This document shows positions 4,955 to 58,766 of a stretch of DNA of 64,000 bases, one piece after another. Source of the stretch: Flavisolibacter sp. (lineage in GTDB: Bacteria > Bacteroidota > Bacteroidia > Chitinophagales > Chitinophagaceae). The first letter of the stretch is position 1. The number at the start of each line of letters is the position of its first letter. The notes below the pieces were generated by a model that did no database searches, was not told the origin of the DNA, and was given only the letters and a program-made list of their open reading frames with translations. Position numbers and translations under genes: made by a program. The stretch is taken from positions 5,568,123-5,632,122 of the forward strand of contig OZ252037.1 of NCBI GenBank assembly GCA_965247695.1, in the 5' to 3' direction.

Positions 4955-6196
4955 CTATTGCTGTCCCGCATAATAACACAAGGTGCTGCTGTTCTCTTCC
5001 CGAAACATCTCCTTACTCAAAGCCTGTATTTCATCCACCGTCACCACGTTGTATCTGTCTAATTCCGTATTCATCAGCGCCGCATCGCCCAGCAGTTCGT
5101 AATAGGCCAAACTCGCCGCTCGGTTCATCACACTCATGTCTTCAAAAGCCACGGTGCTTTCGGTTTTGTTCTTTACTTTCTGCAGTTCCTCGGCCGTTAC
5201 TTTTTCGGTTTTGAGTCGCAACAGTTCTTCTTCCACGGCTGCTTCAGCGTCCTGCATGGTTACGCCTTTTACCAGTTTGCCTTCAATGGTCAGCAGGCCG
5301 GCATCGGTGGTGCCGAAGTGGTAACATTCGATGTTGCTGAATAATTTCTTTTCTTTTACCAACGCCTGGTACAAACGGGAAGAGCCGCCACCACCAAGAA
5401 TTTCGCCAATCAAATCGGAAACATAATAGCGGTGGTCAGTACGGCCGTACATGTGCCATGTTTTGTAAAAGGCATCCAGCGGCACGGCGGCATGAATGGC
5501 TAAACGCTTGGCTACTTTTTGTTCCGGTTCCGCGGGCAATTGCCGGTTGTATTTTTCGCCGCTTTCGATGGGGCCAAACCATTTCTCTGCAAGCTCTTTC
5601 GCTTTTTCCACGGTTATGTTTCCGGCCACCACCAGGATGGCGTTTACGGGCCGGTAATGTTTAAAAAAAAAGTCTTTGACATCCTGCAGGCTTGCGTGTT
5701 CAATGTGCGAAAGCTCTTTGCCGATGGTCATCCATTTGTAGGGATGCACGTCGTAAGCCAGGTTGCGCAGTTTGAGCCACACATCGCCGTAAGGCTTGTT
5801 GAGATAATGTTCCTTGAATTCTTCCATCACCACTTTACGCTGCACCTCCAGACTGGCCTCGCTAAAACCCAGTGACAACATTCGATCGCTTTCGAGCCAG
5901 AAAGCGGTTTCCAGATTTTCAGCCGGAAGCTGTATGTAATAGTTGGTAAGGTCGCTGGTAGTATAAGCGTTGTTCTCACCGCCGGCCATCTGCAGAGGCT
6001 CATCATAAGCCGGCACGTTGATGGAACCACCGAACATTAAATGCTCAAACAAGTGCGCAAAGCCCGTGCGGTTCGGGTTTTCGTCACGGGCGCCTACATC
6101 GTATAAAACATTCACCACCGCCATGGGCGTTGACGTATCCTGATGCACCAAAACTCGTAATCCGTTTGCTAACGTAAACCGGCTAAAATTGACCAC
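4955..6196 (-). CDS. M16 family zinc peptidase, catalytic subunit
   Basis: GFAHLFEHLMFGGS (HxxEH), NAYTT..TNYY; GTG start. Confidence 0.93.
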   Translation of the reverse strand: MVNFSRFTLANGLRVLVHQDTSTPMAVVNVLYDVGARDENPNRTGFAHLFEHLMFGGSINVPAYDEPLQMAGGENNAYTTSDLTNYYIQLPAENLETAFWLESDRMLSLGFSEASLEVQRKVVMEEFKEHYLNKPYGDVWLKLRNLAYDVHPYKWMTIGKELSHIEHASLQDVKDFFFKHYRPVNAILVVAGNITVEKAKELAEKWFGPIESGEKYNRQLPAEPEQKVAKRLAIHAAVPLDAFYKTWHMYGRTDHRYYVSDLIGEILGGGGSSRLYQALVKEKKLFSNIECYHFGTTDAGLLTIEGKLVKGVTMQDAEAAVEEELLRLKTEKVTAEELQKVKNKTESTVAFEDMSVMNRAASLAYYELLGDAALMNTELDRYNVVTVDEIQALSKEMFREENSSTLCYYAGQQ

Positions 6197-6228
6197 TGAT
6201 TAAAGGATTTTAATTGATTTCACAGATG
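6190..6228. repeat. Degenerate solo copy of the GxxExxY-flanking repeat end
   Basis: TGACCACTGATTAAAGGATTT (6190-6210) resembles TGACCACGGATTATCGGGATTT (56586-56607); overlaps the M16 GTG start. Confidence 0.45.
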
Positions 6229-6250
6229 TTCCCGCTGTTGCGGGAAGGTG

Positions 6251-13108: not shown

Positions 13109-14896
13109 CTACTGAAACTCTACAGTCGCTGCAAGGTTTTGTCCGCCTCTTGTATAATTTACCGTGGTTTTATCGCCCTTTTTAAACTTGCCAAGGGCTT
13201 GCATGTAGCTTTCCATTGATGATACTTTATAGTCGCCAAGCGAGGTAATTACATCGCCTGTTTGCAAGCCTGCTTTTTGTGCGGGACGGCCATCGCTTAC
13301 GCCGTCGGCTCTTACGCCGGCGCCGCTAAACGTGTAGTCGGGCATGATGCCGAGCGACACGCTCCAACGAGCCGTGGTTCCCATTTGCGGGTCTCTTGTT
13401 TTAACAAAGGCAAGTTTCGCATTCATTTTATCCGTTGCCTGCAGCAAACTGTAAATGTGTTTTACGATGCCAGCCTCACCGTTGTAATTAATCTTGTCCG
13501 CATCATCCGATGGCTTGTGGTAATCGGTATGAAGCCCGGTAAAATAAAACAGTACCGGAATGCCTTTGTTGTAAAAAGAGGTGTGGTCGCTTGGTCCCTG
13601 GCCGCTGCTATCAAAGCGGTAAGCCGTTGTGCTGTACACTGCTTCTTTGCCTTGCCGGTTGTACAATTCGCCCCAAGTGGGCGATGTGCCGTAACCGCCA
13701 ACGGTAATGGTTTTGGAAGAATCGTTTAAACGTCCTACCATGTCCATGTTTAGCATAAAGTTTACGCTGCTTAAATCAACGGTGGGATGTTCAACAAAAA
13801 ACTTTGACCCGAACAAGCCGAGTTCTTCGCCGGAGAAAGCAATGAGTAATACGTTGCTATTCTTGAGCGGCGAAGTTTTTAAAAGCCTCGCCAGTTCAAT
13901 CAGTGCCGCCGTGCCGCTGGCGTTGTCGTCGGCGCCGTTGTGAATTTGTTTGTCTGTTCCGGTATAGCGGCTGTTGGCGTCTTCGCCGTAACCCAGGTGA
14001 TCGAAGTGAGCGCCGAGAACCACCGTTCTTGCAGCGCCGTTGTCTAAATAACCGATCACGTTTTCGCCGCTGCGCTTCTTCTCCGCAACTTCTGTTTTTG
14101 CTTTCAGTTTTAATAGCGCCGAAGGATCGCCGAAATATTTTTTAGCCGCTTCCTTTAAAATATAAACCACCGGAATGGGAAGCGGCTCTGTTCTGTCTTT
14201 ACCGTCAAAACTCAATCCGTCGTTCAGCTTTGATGTATTGTAAACAAACAAAGCGGTTGCGCCTTTCTTAGCTGCATCCGTTGCTTTGGCCACCACCGCT
14301 TCCACAACATCAAAGTGCGGATTACCGGCATTCTTATTCACCGTTTCTTCCAAATCAAAAAACCAAGGTTCGCCTTTTTCCATCAAGGCTATGGAAGCCA
14401 GGGCATCCACACCGGCATTGGCGCTAAACACAAGAGGAAAGAAATCGGTGCCGGATTTTAAATCAACGCCGTTAATGGCAAGCGTATTGGCGGCGGTCAG
14501 CTCTTTACCTTCGGCTACGGGAAAGGGTTGATAAAAACCATCGGTACCTTTTGGCTGAAGCCCGATGGACTGAAAGGCGGCGCTGATATAAGCAGCCGCT
14601 TTTCTCTCTCCTTCTGTTCCGGTGCGGCGGCCTTCCAAACTATCGCTGGCAAGGTATTGAACATGGCCTCTTAAGTTCGATGCCAGCGGTTGAAGGTCAG
14701 ACGCCGCTTGCTTTTGCGAAGCGCAGCCCGCAAGTAAAAGAAGGCTTAGACTAAACTGAATATGTGGGAGAGGCCGTGCAAACACTGGAGTTGTTTTAAT
14801 TCGTGAACGTTCGTTGTGTCCTTTGTGCAACCTTTGTATTCTTCGTGGCCTTCCTACGCCAGAGCGCAAGCGGATCATCACGGAAACTAAGGACAT
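13109..14896 (-). CDS. M28 peptidase lipoprotein with PA-like insert and C-terminal PDZ (true start probably GTG 14785)
   Basis: LLLAGC lipobox, GAHFDHLG, GADDNASG, SGEELGL, SDH, DYHKPSD, LGIMPDY PDZ. Confidence 0.9.
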   Translation of the reverse strand: MSLVSVMIRLRSGVGRPRRIQRLHKGHNERSRIKTTPVFARPLPHIQFSLSLLLLAGCASQKQAASDLQPLASNLRGHVQYLASDSLEGRRTGTEGERKAAAYISAAFQSIGLQPKGTDGFYQPFPVAEGKELTAANTLAINGVDLKSGTDFFPLVFSANAGVDALASIALMEKGEPWFFDLEETVNKNAGNPHFDVVEAVVAKATDAAKKGATALFVYNTSKLNDGLSFDGKDRTEPLPIPVVYILKEAAKKYFGDPSALLKLKAKTEVAEKKRSGENVIGYLDNGAARTVVLGAHFDHLGYGEDANSRYTGTDKQIHNGADDNASGTAALIELARLLKTSPLKNSNVLLIAFSGEELGLFGSKFFVEHPTVDLSSVNFMLNMDMVGRLNDSSKTITVGGYGTSPTWGELYNRQGKEAVYSTTAYRFDSSGQGPSDHTSFYNKGIPVLFYFTGLHTDYHKPSDDADKINYNGEAGIVKHIYSLLQATDKMNAKLAFVKTRDPQMGTTARWSVSLGIMPDYTFSGAGVRADGVSDGRPAQKAGLQTGDVITSLGDYKVSSMESYMQALGKFKKGDKTTVNYTRGGQNLAATVEFQ

Positions 14897-34997: not shown

Positions 34998-35058
34998 AAT
35001 CCCGACAATCCTCGCCTACCGGCAGGCAGGCGTTTCAAATCCCCCAAATCCGTGGTCA
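34998..35058. repeat. Solo GxxExxY-type repeat end interrupted by the GCCTACCGGCAGGC palindrome
   Basis: aatcccgacaatcct[cgcctaccggcaggcaggcg]tttcaaatcccccaaatccgtggtca vs atcccgacaatcctttaaaaatcccgatcatccgtggtca at 57139-57178. Confidence 0.65.
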
Positions 35059-44537: not shown

Positions 44538-44552
44538 GCGGCGAAGATAAGA

Positions 44553-45124
44553 CCTCACCCCGGCCCTCTCCATCGAAGATGCCTGCCTGTCCGGTAGGCA
44601 GGGAGAGGGAGGCCGTGCGGCGGTGTTTACAGCGCAGTCTTTTTTTCACTACTGGAGCCTCTCTATTGTCGTAAAGACTTTTACCTGTCATTCCGAAATT
44701 CGATTCATTTCCATTTTCCTTCTCTCATTGGAGAAGGTTCCGCTTCAGGCGGAGGATGAGGCCGGGGGATCTGTGGAGGGTGCTTAAAGAACAGTTGTGA
44801 GATATAAACCTGTTTGCTTTCTTTTCTCAAAGTACAACGCACAGATGCTTCGTTCCTCGGCATGACAAGCAAAAGGCGTTATTATAACAGAGAGATTGAA
44901 AGTTTAAGGAGTGCTTGTGGAATGCCGAATAGTCCCGATAGCTATCGGGATACCGAGCGTAGAAGAGTGCGACGCAACAGACACTTAATAGATAGACAAA
45001 CCTTTGGCCGATAAAAAGATAATGATTGAAAGAATGTCACCGCCTGTAACCCTCTTGCGCAAGCACTCCCTCTCCTTGCCTACCGGACAGGCAGGCATCT
45101 TCGATGGAGAGGGCCGGGGTGAGG
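44553..45124. mobile_element. Composite REP/MITE-like element 3 with ~58-bp near-perfect terminal inverted repeats
   Basis: 44553 cctcaccccggccctctccatcgaagatgcctgcctgtccggtaggcagggagaggga matches the reverse complement of 45067-45124 with 1 mismatch; internal TGTCATTCCG..CGGCATGACA and CCCGATAGCTATCGGGA units. Confidence 0.75.
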
Positions 45125-45125
45125 T

Positions 45126-55485: not shown

Positions 55486-56586
55486 TTATTCCTCCAGCAA
55501 CTCCTGGCAACCGTACTCTTTCTCTAACAAGGTATCGTAGTAATCGGCTTTTTGAAACAAGTCGCGGAACATTTCGATGCCGGCGTCTTTGGTCATGTCC
55601 AGGTCGTACATGATGCAAGACAGCACGATGTTTTGCTTGAGGCAACTTAACACAAGGCCGTCGAGGGTAAAGTTTTCCTGCAATAAAAATTGATAGAGCG
55701 GTTTTATTTGTGTGGTGTCGGTAGGCAGGCCGCAGAGGTAGGCATCGCCGGCCACGAAAAAGTTTTCGGGATTATAGTTGATTTTGATTTTGGCGCCGCC
55801 TTCCTTTACGCTCCAATTGTTGTTGCCGTCACGGGCCAGCTTTACATCTTTGCCCAGTTCAGTTAAAATTTCTTCTACTGTTTTAGATACGCCTACCGGT
55901 TTTGCTTCTTTCTCCGGCGGCTGCGGAAGCTTTACTTCGGTGCCGCAATACGGACAGTACTTGGTGGCTTCAATGTTTGTGGCCAACACTAGATTGTTGC
56001 AACTGTGGCAGCGTGTGGAAGGCTGGCCTTTGTAAGGCAAATAGAGTTGCAAGGCTTCGCGAATGTAGCTCACCGGCAAGGCAAAACCCAAGTTATCGCC
56101 GCCCTTAATGATGAAGGAATTGATGCCAATGATTTCGCCTTTCTTATTCACCAGCGGTCCGCCGCTGTTACCGGGGTTGATGGCCGCGTCAATCTGAATG
56201 TATTTCACGCCGTCGCGTATCCGGTCCACTTTGGAAATAACGCCTTGCGTGGCGGTGTAGTTCAGGCCAAAAGGATGGCCGATGGCAACCACCACTTCGC
56301 CATCATTCACATCTTCGTACACACCCAGCCTTACTTCGGGCAACACCACATCGGTTGGCGCCTGCAAAAAAGCAAGGTCGTGTTTGCGGTCGGTGTACCA
56401 AACGCGGGCAATGCGTTTTTCAAACAGGCGTCCGGCAATGGTGACTTCGGCGTTCTTGCTCACCACGTGTTCGTTGGTTACAATGAGGTCGAATTCTTTT
56501 ATGTAAAAGCCGGTGCCGGTACTGCCTTGCGTGGCAAGCTGAATAATGGCGGGGCGGTAGAGTTCTATGATTTGTTGCGTTGTCAT
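55486..56586 (-). CDS. Trypsin-like serine protease + zinc ribbon + YbjN-like C-terminal domain
   Basis: TNEHV (H), HDLA (D), GNSGGP (S); CHSC...CPYC; C-terminal domain ending ADYYDTLL...YG; no signal peptide or PDZ. Confidence 0.85.
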   Translation of the reverse strand: MTTQQIIELYRPAIIQLATQGSTGTGFYIKEFDLIVTNEHVVSKNAEVTIAGRLFEKRIARVWYTDRKHDLAFLQAPTDVVLPEVRLGVYEDVNDGEVVVAIGHPFGLNYTATQGVISKVDRIRDGVKYIQIDAAINPGNSGGPLVNKKGEIIGINSFIIKGGDNLGFALPVSYIREALQLYLPYKGQPSTRCHSCNNLVLATNIEATKYCPYCGTEVKLPQPPEKEAKPVGVSKTVEEILTELGKDVKLARDGNNNWSVKEGGAKIKINYNPENFFVAGDAYLCGLPTDTTQIKPLYQFLLQENFTLDGLVLSCLKQNIVLSCIMYDLDMTKDAGIEMFRDLFQKADYYDTLLEKEYGCQELLEE

Positions 56587-57077
56587 GACCACGGATTATC
56601 GGGATTTAACCACGGATTGTCGGGATTTTTTAAAGGATTATTGAGATTGTATAAGGCTTTGGGTTCGTTCAATAGGTTGATAGGATTTTCCGGCGGCGTG
56701 ATGCTTTTGTTATTGGCAATTCTTTTGAATTGTAAGCTTTTTGCGCCAAAGTTGATGAGCAAAGCAATTTCCTCCCGATGGCTTTCGAGATAGTTTAAGG
56801 CTTGCACAAAGTCCTTATCAGTAAAAGTGGCAAGTGCTTTCAATTCGACTACTATTTTTTCTTCCACCATAAAATCCACTCTTCTTCCGCCCACAATAAA
56901 CTCATCGTAATAAACATTTAAGTTCTTCTCTTTCTCATACCGCAAACTAATCCGCTTAAACTCAATTGCCAGACAACGGCCGTAAATGATTTCAGGATAA
57001 CCCGGCCCCATCTTACTATGAACCTTCATAGCACAGCCAATTATTTTCTCTGTTATGTCGGCATGTTTAAGTTCCAT
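56583..57077 (-). CDS. GxxExxY-family PD-(D/E)XK-like protein
   Basis: ITEKIIGCAMKVHSKMGPGYPEIIY, RVDFMVEEKIVVELKA, QALNYL, LINFG; C-terminus runs into repeat-encoded NP-rich tail. Confidence 0.9.
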   Translation of the reverse strand: MELKHADITEKIIGCAMKVHSKMGPGYPEIIYGRCLAIEFKRISLRYEKEKNLNVYYDEFIVGGRRVDFMVEEKIVVELKALATFTDKDFVQALNYLESHREEIALLINFGAKSLQFKRIANNKSITPPENPINLLNEPKALYNLNNPLKNPDNPWLNPDNPWS

Positions 57078-57178
57078 CTACAAAAATTTTTTGACGCGAA
57101 GAATGTTTATAAACAAAAACAATCCTTTCTATCTAACCATCCCGACAATCCTTTAAAAATCCCGATCATCCGTGGTCA
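56586..57178. mobile_element. 593-bp GxxExxY unit with 22-bp terminal inverted repeats
   Basis: Left TGACCACGGATTATCGGGATTT (56586-56607); right (57157-57178) reverse complement TGACCACGGATGATCGGGATTT; 21/22 identical. Confidence 0.7.
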
Positions 57179-58513
57179 ACGACTTTCAAGATTTAGGTAC
57201 TCCACTTCCGTGGTGAAGGACTGATTAAACGCCACCGCATTATCGTACTTCAGCTTCTCCACGTCAAACTTTAGTTCGGGATATTTCTCCTTCCAGCGTT
57301 CGATGACAACATCAACGTACTCCCTGATTTTTTCTTTATTGTATTCGTTCTTCTCTATAATGTAGAAAGCATCAGTATAACCAAGCGCGGCAAAATAATC
57401 GGCGTAGTTGATCATCATAAACAAGTGAAACAATTCCGTTACCGGCCGGGGCAAACTGTACGAATACTGGCAATAGGAAAAACCGTATTCGCTGATGCGG
57501 GCCGCTACCTCCGGCATCTTGTGTTCGCGGTACCAACCCACGTTTTGATTGGCGTTGTAAATGGCATCGGCCACGGTTTTGTAAGCTTGCGGGGTTACAA
57601 TGGAGAACGTATGTTTGGCGCGAAAGAGATAAGGATAAAATTCCGTGCGGTCTTTTGTAGCCAGCTTTTGAAAGCAGTCCAGCATCTCGCCGTTCTTTTC
57701 GGTAACGGGCCGGTTGTCCTTACGGAAATAAATTTCCACTACCTTCTCCAGCTCCGATTGCAGCTTGCCTTCGGGGGTAATGAGGTAATCTATCCGGTAA
57801 GCCAAGGCCAATAAAAGATAGGCAATGCCGCCCGAATATTTATCGTTGTCAATGGTGCCGACGAGGGCAATGGTTTCCTCAATCCATTTTTTAAAGAACT
57901 GCAGCTTGATGGCTTTTTCTTCATCGGATATTGGCGTGATGTGGTCAACATCCACCGGCAGCAGCGTAGTAAAATCCTGCACCAACAAATCGTCCTGCTT
58001 ATCGGCTTTTGTCGCCAACTCTTTCAAGCCATAATACAGTTTGCTTGGATTGGCGGTTTCAATGTCGCTGTCGAAGAACATGTAAATAATTCCTTCGTGC
58101 AAGGCATAGCGGCTGTAGTATAAATTAAAGTTCATCTCCAGCAAGCGGCGCATCACCGGCACACTTGGCTGCGGCATTTGTGCGATGGATATTTCGGCTT
58201 CCAACCTTTCAGCGTTAAAGTAGCCCCGAATGATTTTTGACCCTTGGTAAAACAGAAACTTTTGCTGCGCCGCTTCGGGCACAAGCTTTACGTTGTCCTC
58301 GTCCTCGTCGCGCAGGTAATCAAAAAAAGCAGTCACGCTTTCGGTATACTTCTTTTCTTTAAACAAGCTTTCGGCCTCGTTCCATTTTTCCACTTTGGAC
58401 ACGGGCTTGTTGTTGTCGGAGTAGCGGCCAAACCGTATGAAAGGAACGCTTGCGGGCACGGCTTCTTCTTCACCTTCTTTCTTCTTCGACCAGCTAAAAA
58501 TTTTTTCCAGCAT
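57176..58513 (-). CDS. Hypothetical protein with YbjN/T3SS-chaperone-like central domain
   Basis: VMRRLLEMNFNLYYSRYAL...LKELATKADKQDDLL resembles the YbjN fold; helical C-terminus; ATG 58513. Confidence 0.65.
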   Translation of the reverse strand: MLEKIFSWSKKKEGEEEAVPASVPFIRFGRYSDNNKPVSKVEKWNEAESLFKEKKYTESVTAFFDYLRDEDEDNVKLVPEAAQQKFLFYQGSKIIRGYFNAERLEAEISIAQMPQPSVPVMRRLLEMNFNLYYSRYALHEGIIYMFFDSDIETANPSKLYYGLKELATKADKQDDLLVQDFTTLLPVDVDHITPISDEEKAIKLQFFKKWIEETIALVGTIDNDKYSGGIAYLLLALAYRIDYLITPEGKLQSELEKVVEIYFRKDNRPVTEKNGEMLDCFQKLATKDRTEFYPYLFRAKHTFSIVTPQAYKTVADAIYNANQNVGWYREHKMPEVAARISEYGFSYCQYSYSLPRPVTELFHLFMMINYADYFAALGYTDAFYIIEKNEYNKEKIREYVDVVIERWKEKYPELKFDVEKLKYDNAVAFNQSFTTEVEYLNLESR

Positions 58514-58766
58514 ACGTGATTTTATTCGCAACAAGCTTTCTCCGAGTTCAGGTGTCAATTTGCAGTTAGCGGTTTGCACCGCTGCTTAAATCAATTTTTA
58601 CAACCCGAAAGCCTCTTCGGTATTTTTTGCCAATTGCCAACTCTTCAAAATACGGGCCGACAAAGCGTTTGCAAAACCGGCAAGTTAAGCGAAATGAGGG
58701 TTGATAAACAGCGTAAAACTTTGCACCAAAAATCCTTAGTTTCGCCTCTATTGAAATCGTACGAAC

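Follow-up and report, generated by a model that had tools for sequence, protein, structure and literature searches.

Small genes held in a frame of repeats are already in print for the REP sequences and their RAYT genes (PMC3116915), for the GIY-YIG nuclease Ssn with its NTS repeats (PMC11893778), and for the intervening sequences (IVS) of 23S rRNA, whose S23p genes are accompanied by heptamers (PMC4990558). The Coxiella IVS is excised by RNase III at a 28-bp stem with tandem heptamers round a small open reading frame (ORF) (PMC4990558). For Ssn, both cleavage and a role in transformation were shown experimentally (PMC11893778). In a 64,000-nt stretch of a Flavisolibacter genome (the window, to which coordinates refer unless marked genome; the 5.68-Mb genome itself is G000 below) a GxxExxY gene lies between inverted arrays of a short repeat, the arms, at the junction of two operon genes. 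What is new is the occurrence of the design in this family; the anatomy of the cassette is well supported and its mechanism is what we infer from that anatomy. Our preferred reading, to which we give a little less than an even chance, is that the cassette joins a predicted nuclease to a cognate repeat and spreads its arms at gene boundaries. The corresponding profile PDDEXK_3 was entered as ‘Unknown’ in a 2012 superfamily catalogue (PMC3424549); elsewhere in the literature searched, GxxExxY was named only in passing annotations and PDDEXK_3 not beyond that catalogue.

The GxxExxY cassette

All genes between 55.4 and 58.6 kb lie on the minus strand, in the order 467-aa gene, GxxExxY gene and peptidase gene. 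The cassette and its neighbours are laid out as follows.

57176 to 58579, minus strand: upstream operon gene, 467 aa, with the arm tip as its stop TGA; it adjoins the protease gene in congeners
57118 to 57178, minus strand: upstream arm of two to three units, TGACCACGGATGATCGGGATT / TTTAAAGGATTGTCGGGATGG ..., read from the tip inward
57078 to 57117, minus strand: short leader without coding sequence, from the upstream arm to the GxxExxY start codon
56583 to 57077, minus strand: GxxExxY / PDDEXK_3 gene, 164 aa, matching profiles PF13366 and TIGR04256
56586 to 56650, plus strand: downstream arm of three 21-nt units, TGACCACGGATTATCGGGATT / TAACCACGGATTGTCGGGATT / TTTTAAAGGATTATTGAGATT, read from the tip inward
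55486 to 56586, minus strand: downstream operon gene, a trypsin-like serine peptidase, with its ATG at 56586-56584

The outermost inverted repeat sets TGACCACGGATTATCGGGATTT (56586-56607) against 57157-57178 with 21 of 22 positions complementary (95%). It is followed inward by co-linear pairs of 28 nt (56606-56633/57152-57179, 86%) and 24 nt (56627-56650/57136-57159, 83%), plus one 13/13 pair; the 21-nt units number three in the left arm (56588-56650) and two to three in the right (57118-57178). The whole unit measures 593 bp and GxxExxY is its sole gene. An earlier note on this DNA had described the repeat as enclosing only that gene: the 21/22 repeat and the single gene are real, but the downstream arm lies inside the reading frame and not outside it, where it codes for the last ~20 residues (..NPLKNPDNPWLNPDNPWS). 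Both tips read TGACCACGG. Both coordinates given by the same note for the ends were borne out, the TGA of one tip (57176-57178) doubling as the stop of the 467-aa gene, and the other tip overlapping the peptidase ATG (56584-56586) together with the GxxExxY stop (ATGA). The 467-aa gene has no match in Pfam, NCBIfam or PADLOC.

The GATT blocks of the unit are spaced 9, 12, 9, 12 and 9 nt, and 9+12 makes one 21-nt period, about two helical turns; the blocks are conserved and the spacers between them variable. These conserved blocks, variable spacers and 21-nt phasing look like an array of protein-binding sites rather than a continuous RNA stem. The arms of the cassette do pair in RNA as a long interrupted stem (RNA fold, minimum free energy -174.8 kcal/mol, z -6.2). 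A search of the region against Rfam gave no family match, and the unit stands between two protein-coding genes, not in a 23S rRNA helix.

A minimal predicted nuclease

The 164-aa protein matches PF13366 (PDDEXK_3) at E 1.7e-32 and 112.7 bits (cut-off 22) and TIGR04256 (GxxExxY) at E 4.5e-35 and 120.5 bits (cut-off 35). In an alignment of 28 sequences G26, Y32 and K80 are invariant, and E29, D68, E78 and Y96 are at least 90% conserved, giving the motifs G26xxE29xxY32, D68, E78xK80 and QxxxY96. We take E, D, ExK and QxxxY to be the residue set of nucleases of the RecB, Cas4 and lambda-exonuclease type. The AlphaFold2 model has a pLDDT of 83.6, and residues 121-164 form a low-confidence tail that is partly encoded by the arm; such arm-encoded tails, rich in NP, recur in relatives. 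The best fold matches, all of them weak, are Cas4 SSO0001, alkaline and lambda exonucleases and a small restriction-endonuclease-like protein of Spirosoma; I-Bth0305I is also among the matches. Profile matches, conserved catalytic residues and nearest folds among Cas4 and the lambda exonuclease all agree with the previous assignment of GxxExxY proteins as PD-(D/E)XK-like. The protein keeps RecB/Cas4-type catalytic motifs and is a minimal predicted PD-(D/E)XK nuclease.

PF13366 is the only profile matched by the cassette ORF; it carries no Y1_Tnp or GIY-YIG domain, and the cassette no transposase gene. A sequence search of the PDB gave no solved relative, PADLOC no defence-system match, and an exact-protein look-up no identical protein in other assemblies on record, the best metagenome relative being 69% identical.

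Paralogs and their arm families

Five PF13366 genes are present in this genome. All five are bracketed by inverted arrays of short units, each from another sequence family (the GGATT type of the cassette, CACAAAG/CACGAAG, GGCGGAGC, a CACAAAG-like type, and GTAAGAC), so that the inverted flanks seen at one copy hold for the others as well. A flanking-inverted-repeat score, computed for all 1383 genes of 300-700 nt in the genome, reached 40 or more in 15 of them (1.1%). Three of the five GxxExxY genes belong to these top 15, with the other two at about the 95th percentile, and the rest of the group are mostly Y1_Tnp (RAYT-like), GIY-YIG, DUF559 and 23S_rRNA_IVP genes. Among 27 PF13366 loci of relatives, 14 beat every shuffle for the flanking-repeat score, computed with a crude aligner, and most of the remaining loci show by eye arrays or complete hairpins of such units beside the gene. 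The type of arm follows the protein subclade: GATT arms go with GNGFQE...NYLEA proteins, and CAC/CGC arms with GPGLLE...TYLKL proteins. An arm family of its own for each paralog, and an arm type that follows the subclade, are expected if the protein reads the arms. With five arm families for five paralogs, gene and arms form one unit and travel together.

The other framed genes of this genome (genome coordinates) are listed here.

Y1_Tnp genes with strong flanking inverted repeats: 416497, 1581445, 444244, 3658732
GIY-YIG genes with strong flanking inverted repeats: 1332442, 3034478
23S_rRNA_IVP genes with flanking arrays: 5020243, 4909714, 4506214, 3428422, 652517

The arrays at 23S_rRNA_IVP genes have a period of 7-8 nt, in the same style as those of GxxExxY; GIY-YIG, DUF559 and RAYT genes are framed by hairpin-type repeats.

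The CACAAAG family is likewise dispersed in this genome, as about 20 compact hairpins. In these CACAAAG/CACGAAG hairpins (for example at about 14780-14880 of the window, genome 5582936-5582969) a short loop separates two tips that point towards one another (GGAAC, after GCGTAGG), the inverse of the frame round the cognate GxxExxY gene at genome 2993903. A hairpin with facing tips resembles a joined right-end/left-end junction. On metagenome contig L077 a GxxExxY gene has AATCCTG/CAGGATT arrays with their tips towards the gene, opposite to the usual frame. An inverted pair of another kind, ACCTCACCCC..CTCTCCATC..GATGGAGAGGG, stands at 44552-45125 (genome 5612674-5613247), with 455 nt between its arms, no intact ORF and a nested palindrome in one arm; pairs of this kind number at least 12 in the genome. 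Where copies are intact they surround DUF559 (Vsr-like PD-(D/E)XK) genes, such as the one at genome 3072587-3073063 with a score of 172, and the gene-less pairs of this DUF559 type look like decayed cassettes.

Dispersed arms of the cassette family

The 14-nt core of the arms, GGATTRTCGGGATT, occurs nine times in the window with up to two mismatches, against 0.61 expected, and none of 100 shuffles reached nine. Over the whole genome there are 35 exact copies and 99 with at most one mismatch (reversed-pattern control, 0), while each of 20 relatives has between 2 and 11 of the latter, which is near background. A generic tip-plus-block pattern was found 52 times in G000, 13 times in G008, two to five times in each of four other congeners, and not at all in the remaining 15 genomes; its controls gave 0 in each of the six genomes that hold the pattern and at most 1 in the others. 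We considered a pure burst in G000 and found it to be only partly so, with related arms in five congeners and three sites armed in several species.

The matches group into about 95 arrays that hold no gene, and the relatives have almost none of these. The number is far above the two solo ends of the earlier note (34998-35058 and 6190-6210), the first of which is a true arm and the second a diverged arm overlapping a GTG:

34998 to 35058, minus strand: solo arm, AATCCCGACAATCC ... AAATCCGTGGTCA, with its tip CCGTGGTCA at 35050-35058; a nested palindrome replaces one unit
6190 to 6229, plus strand: diverged solo arm, TGACCACTGATTAAAGGATTTTAATTGATT..., reading TGACCACTGATTAAAGGATT at 6190-6209; its tip overlaps the GTG start of the minus-strand ORF 4955-6196

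Two opposite arrays are found at 17 loci, and at all 17 the tips point outward (2^-17 under random orientation); the other arrays are solo. The tip, CC[AG]C[AG]G, is oriented next to T[GA]A at a gene end. TAA, TGA or TAG directly precedes its CC in 51 of the 95 arrays, 17 arrays lie within 4 nt of a called gene's stop codon, and 43 face the 5' end of a gene, mostly within 31 nt of the called start. Arms were found only at gene boundaries, with no gene broken by any of the roughly 95 arrays. The flank CAAANNTAA stands in fixed register at 16 arrays. Its interpretation as an outward promoter carried by the arm was rejected, as G004 has the same box (CTACTTTTAC) without an arm and the box is therefore native.

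The sequence CAAA(A/G)NTAA lies directly before the tip at 16-19 arm sites (for example genome 59961, 705860 and 5520173). On the opposite strand this reads as a TAnnTTTG box, separated by only 3-10 nt from the ATG of the gene that faces outward; only 7.6% of called genes have a strict box within 60 nt of the start. Insertion of arms seems to favour the upstream edge of the promoter-like box.

The palindrome nested in the solo arm at about 35012-35032, CCTGCCTRCCGGYAGGCAGG, is 20 nt long and has 48 copies in the genome (reversed control, 0). It is always nested in the stem or apex of other repeats, namely GGATT arms, CACAAAG hairpins, REP-like repeats and hairpins of the DUF559 type, and resembles a very short insert whose targets are hairpin repeats already in place.

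Comparison with congeners

The 467-aa gene is next to the peptidase gene in 12 congeners. Four of these (G000, G001, G004 and G007) have an orthologous GxxExxY cassette, with arms of the GATT type, at the junction; in the other eight the junction is empty, with overlapping stop and start, TAAATG, or spacers of 5-37 nt. The gene is thus not fixed at its site, a point on which the reading of the earlier note could have failed. The 16-nt spacer of G009 (..AAATCCGCCATT followed by ATG) resembles the arm tip of G001 and looks like a tip-like remnant of a cassette. GxxExxY evolves faster than its neighbours, with 52-69% protein identity against 78-87% for the peptidase. Between the two arms of the orthologous G001 and G004 cassettes the spacers vary, whereas CCGCGGATT and GGATT are kept; arm similarity was 0.74 within a cassette and 0.63 between species, a modest difference on which we do not rely. 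As to the order of cassette gain and loss, trees of the flanking genes, built from the protease protein alone and from 2.5 kb of nucleotides, were both unresolved.

Five single sites or junctions with arms were followed through the congeners, of which three are armed in several species (the cassette, L25/pth and FKBP/DinB) and two are unique to G000. Beside the SufT-like gene only G000 has a 66-nt solo arm of three units, set precisely between the native TGA and the native spacer. At the ABC ATPase gene the arm, again only in G000, adjoins the 5' edge of the native promoter-like box, which in G004 is armless. At L25/pth both gene edges carry an arm in G000; the stop of L25 is native, and the GTG of a tip now serves as the pth start. 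Arm-like sequence is present there in G001, G004 and G008 as well. The FKBP/DinB junction measures 0-13 nt in three species and holds inserts of about 150 nt with inverted arms in four; the arm families of G000 and G002 are related, those of G004 and G007 are different ones. We conclude from these comparisons that the arms are inserted DNA and able to insert singly, and that single arms have entered this lineage with the sequence beside them left undisturbed.

In several of these cases the stop at the tip is native, which speaks for a target preference and against a stop always supplied by the element. That T[GA]A at the tip is often a native codon points to target preference together with selection against gene disruption. 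The proposal that the unit inserts at stop and start codons accordingly stands as far as base-precise placement goes, and needs amending in that the T[GA]A is not always supplied by the element. The idea that the unit spreads its own end repeats also needs qualification: gene and arms make one unit and solo ends are many, but arms spread singly too.

The tip CCGTGGTCA supplies the GTG start of pth (genome 892699) and perhaps that of ORF 4955-6196 (window 6194-6196). The pth start reads GTGGTCAAGTTT in G000, ATGAAGTTT or ATGAAATTT in six of eight congeners, and TTG and ATGAAGTAT in the others.

How the cassette may work, and rival explanations

Under our preferred reading the GxxExxY protein would bind the phased GATT blocks and cut at or near the tip. 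Breaks would then be repaired by copying other arm copies, whereby arms would be planted and homogenised at the T[GA]A of gene boundaries, and over evolutionary time the copying could carry the gene between arm-bearing sites. Paired arms in the operon transcript may be cut by RNase III, as in the intervening sequences of 23S rRNA; such processing would let the cassette sit harmlessly between two translationally coupled genes. In this reading the nuclease would be the driver of the movement. A broader version takes GxxExxY proteins and phased-block arms as a distinct class of self-propagating DNA, in which the nuclease would recognise the array and plant oriented arms next to T[GA]A at stop codons and 5' gene edges by break-and-copy, and the arms, removed from RNA by pairing, would give the cassette a place inside operons; this we consider doubtful.

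Several observations weigh against the preferred reading. Metagenome relatives with 52-69% protein identity hold the same junction, and a cassette shared there by such diverged relatives must be old, not a recent insertion. None of the five PF13366 genes of this genome is a recent duplicate. The 23S_rRNA_IVP genes encode a four-helix bundle, not a nuclease, and stand in arrays of the same style, so a nuclease in the frame is not needed for the design. What lies between the arms of the 16 gene-less pairs is unrelated from pair to pair and bears no GxxExxY remnant, unlike the interiors of miniature inverted-repeat transposable elements (MITEs); an HMM search of their six-frame translations returned nothing below E = 3, and for want of any gene remnant we rejected the idea that these pairs are decayed GxxExxY cassettes. 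No target-site duplication of fixed length was consistent at the cassettes of G000 and G004 or at the 16 gene-less pairs, and the classical transposon model was therefore set aside. Co-occurrence of arrays and PF13366 across 21 genomes is only suggestive. A PD-(D/E)XK nuclease is not known to perform insertion on its own, and binding, cleavage and movement by GxxExxY are predictions.

A 9-bp direct repeat, ATGAATACA, flanks the cassette of G001; it duplicates the start of the peptidase gene and has no counterpart in G000 or G004.

The framed 23S_rRNA_IVP genes, four to five of which have the same 7-8-nt periodic inverted arrays in G000, also feed the view that the arrays are themselves the mobile or self-maintaining entity. 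They would be moved by a host or trans factor or by hairpin-driven slippage and gene conversion, and GxxExxY would be one of several small genes riding in the loop like S23p, as cargo or addiction gene and not as driver. In Coxiella the S23p ORF of the IVS, inside a 28-bp terminal stem with tandem heptamers, probably lacks expression altogether (PMC4990558); there are about 95 arrays without a gene to one with it, and the arm at the SufT-like site inserted by itself. This view has more difficulty with the private arm family of each GxxExxY paralog and with arm types that follow the protein subclade. Moreover, the two array types tested were not found in the three relatives without PF13366 or in G012, which has a fragment only, except for two GATT-type arms in G009, and no candidate for the trans factor was identified. 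We hold it to be fairly unlikely, though it deserves to be taken seriously. Nor do we think it probable, and slightly less so, that GxxExxY is a domesticated site-specific nuclease or DNA-binding protein, comparable to SsnA with NTS. The arms would then be gene-boundary signals (limiting recombination or transformation, or acting as terminators, RNase III sites or operators), kept and homogenised by selection and gene conversion and not by selfish transposition. Such a host function would explain why arms lie at gene boundaries only and genes are never broken, and why the cassette is kept at one junction across diverged relatives; the L25/pth, FKBP/DinB and cassette sites, armed in several species with species-specific sequence, look like concerted evolution, the paired arms fold as a long stem, and Ssn provides a precedent (PMC11893778). 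The patchiness among congeners fits dispensable, selfish DNA better: eight of 12 lack the cassette at the junction and eight of 12 lack GATT-type arms. Arm copy number differs at least four-fold between congeners (52 against 0-13), a solo arm cannot form the stem, and there is no match in PADLOC.

Finally, the frame might be a coincidence, a generic extragenic repeat that happens to flank an unrelated gene, since an abundant repeat will have some genes near its copies. The paralogs and orthologs already contradict this, and we rate it as highly improbable: all five paralogs are framed, each by another family; only about 1% of small genes score so high, nearly all of them RAYT, GIY-YIG, DUF559, 23S_rRNA_IVP or PDDEXK_3 genes; and the orthologous cassettes of other species keep their arms.

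Significance

Proteins with PF13366/TIGR04256 occur in many copies across bacteria and archaea and are among the commonest uncharacterised prokaryotic families. For these the locus offers a concrete candidate substrate, namely a unit of 21 nt whose GATT blocks are phased 9+12 nt and whose tip is CC[AG]C[AG]G. In G000 the cognate repeat family has expanded, with 99 near-identical cores and two solo arms seen as insertions there alone, and this makes the organism well suited to a search for activity. Base-precise placement at stop codons and promoter edges, should the element be its cause, would amount to an unusual rule of targeting by which the ends of genes are reshaped; TGA stops and GTG starts are supplied by tips. 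The five framed small-gene families of this genome (RAYT, GIY-YIG, DUF559, 23S_rRNA_IVP and PDDEXK_3) suggest a common life-style, one that has been worked out experimentally only for RAYT and GIY-YIG. Should the broader version be true, it would give a function to a very common protein family and, by extension, explain the cassettes of 23S-IVS proteins.

Comparison with known systems

Free-standing homing endonucleases include PD-(D/E)XK examples such as I-Ssp6803I, and their genes share with the cassette the position of a small nuclease gene at one conserved junction in some relatives only, evolving faster than its flanks. Homing endonuclease genes are not known to stand in frames of repeat arrays or to scatter gene-less ends through the genome, and in this the cassette differs. 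Insertion sequences and MITEs with multi-site terminal inverted repeats have several phased units like protein-binding sites, and gene-less derivatives in the genome, as is the case here. The cassette has no DDE, HUH or serine/tyrosine recombinase, however; its arms insert alone, the gene-less interiors are unrelated, and target-site duplications are not consistent.

The 23S IVS of Coxiella likewise has its small ORF, S23p, in a loop closed by a stem of terminal inverted repeats that contains tandem heptamers, sits inside a transcribed unit, and is regarded as selfish (PMC4990558). In contrast to the IVS, the cassette lies in an mRNA operon and not in rRNA, its ORF has a nuclease fold, its arms are also dispersed without a gene, and excision of its RNA by RNase III is only surmised. 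Ssn (Chenal et al. 2025, PMC11893778) is a small nuclease whose gene is framed on both sides by a repeat, NTS/SRM, on which the nuclease acts; hundreds of copies surround genes, gene and repeat stay associated in different phyla while the sequence varies from species to species, and 81% of SRM-rich genomes carry Ssn. Ssn belongs to the GIY-YIG superfamily and not to PD-(D/E)XK, and its NTS forms a compact hairpin; G000 has hairpin-framed GIY-YIG genes at other loci.

REP/REPIN sequences with RAYT differ from the cassette in several respects. RAYT is an HUH/Y1 transposase whereas the cassette protein has a PD-(D/E)XK fold, REP is an imperfect palindrome whereas the unit here is a direct array of phased GATT blocks, and REPINs have a conserved short spacer where the gene-less pairs of G000 have long, unrelated interiors; the arms of the cassette family, moreover, stand exactly on stop and start codons. 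Like the cassette, they have a small gene present once, with inverted copies of a repeat on its two sides; the repeat is scattered extragenically as doublets and singlets in numbers specific to the lineage, and a genome may hold several gene/repeat pairs, each with its own repeat family (Bertels and Rainey 2011, PMC3116915). RAYT-like Y1_Tnp genes framed in this way are present in G000 itself. The analogy to RAYT/REP, already drawn by the earlier note, is apt; here too the gene is flanked by inverted copies of an extragenically dispersed repeat.

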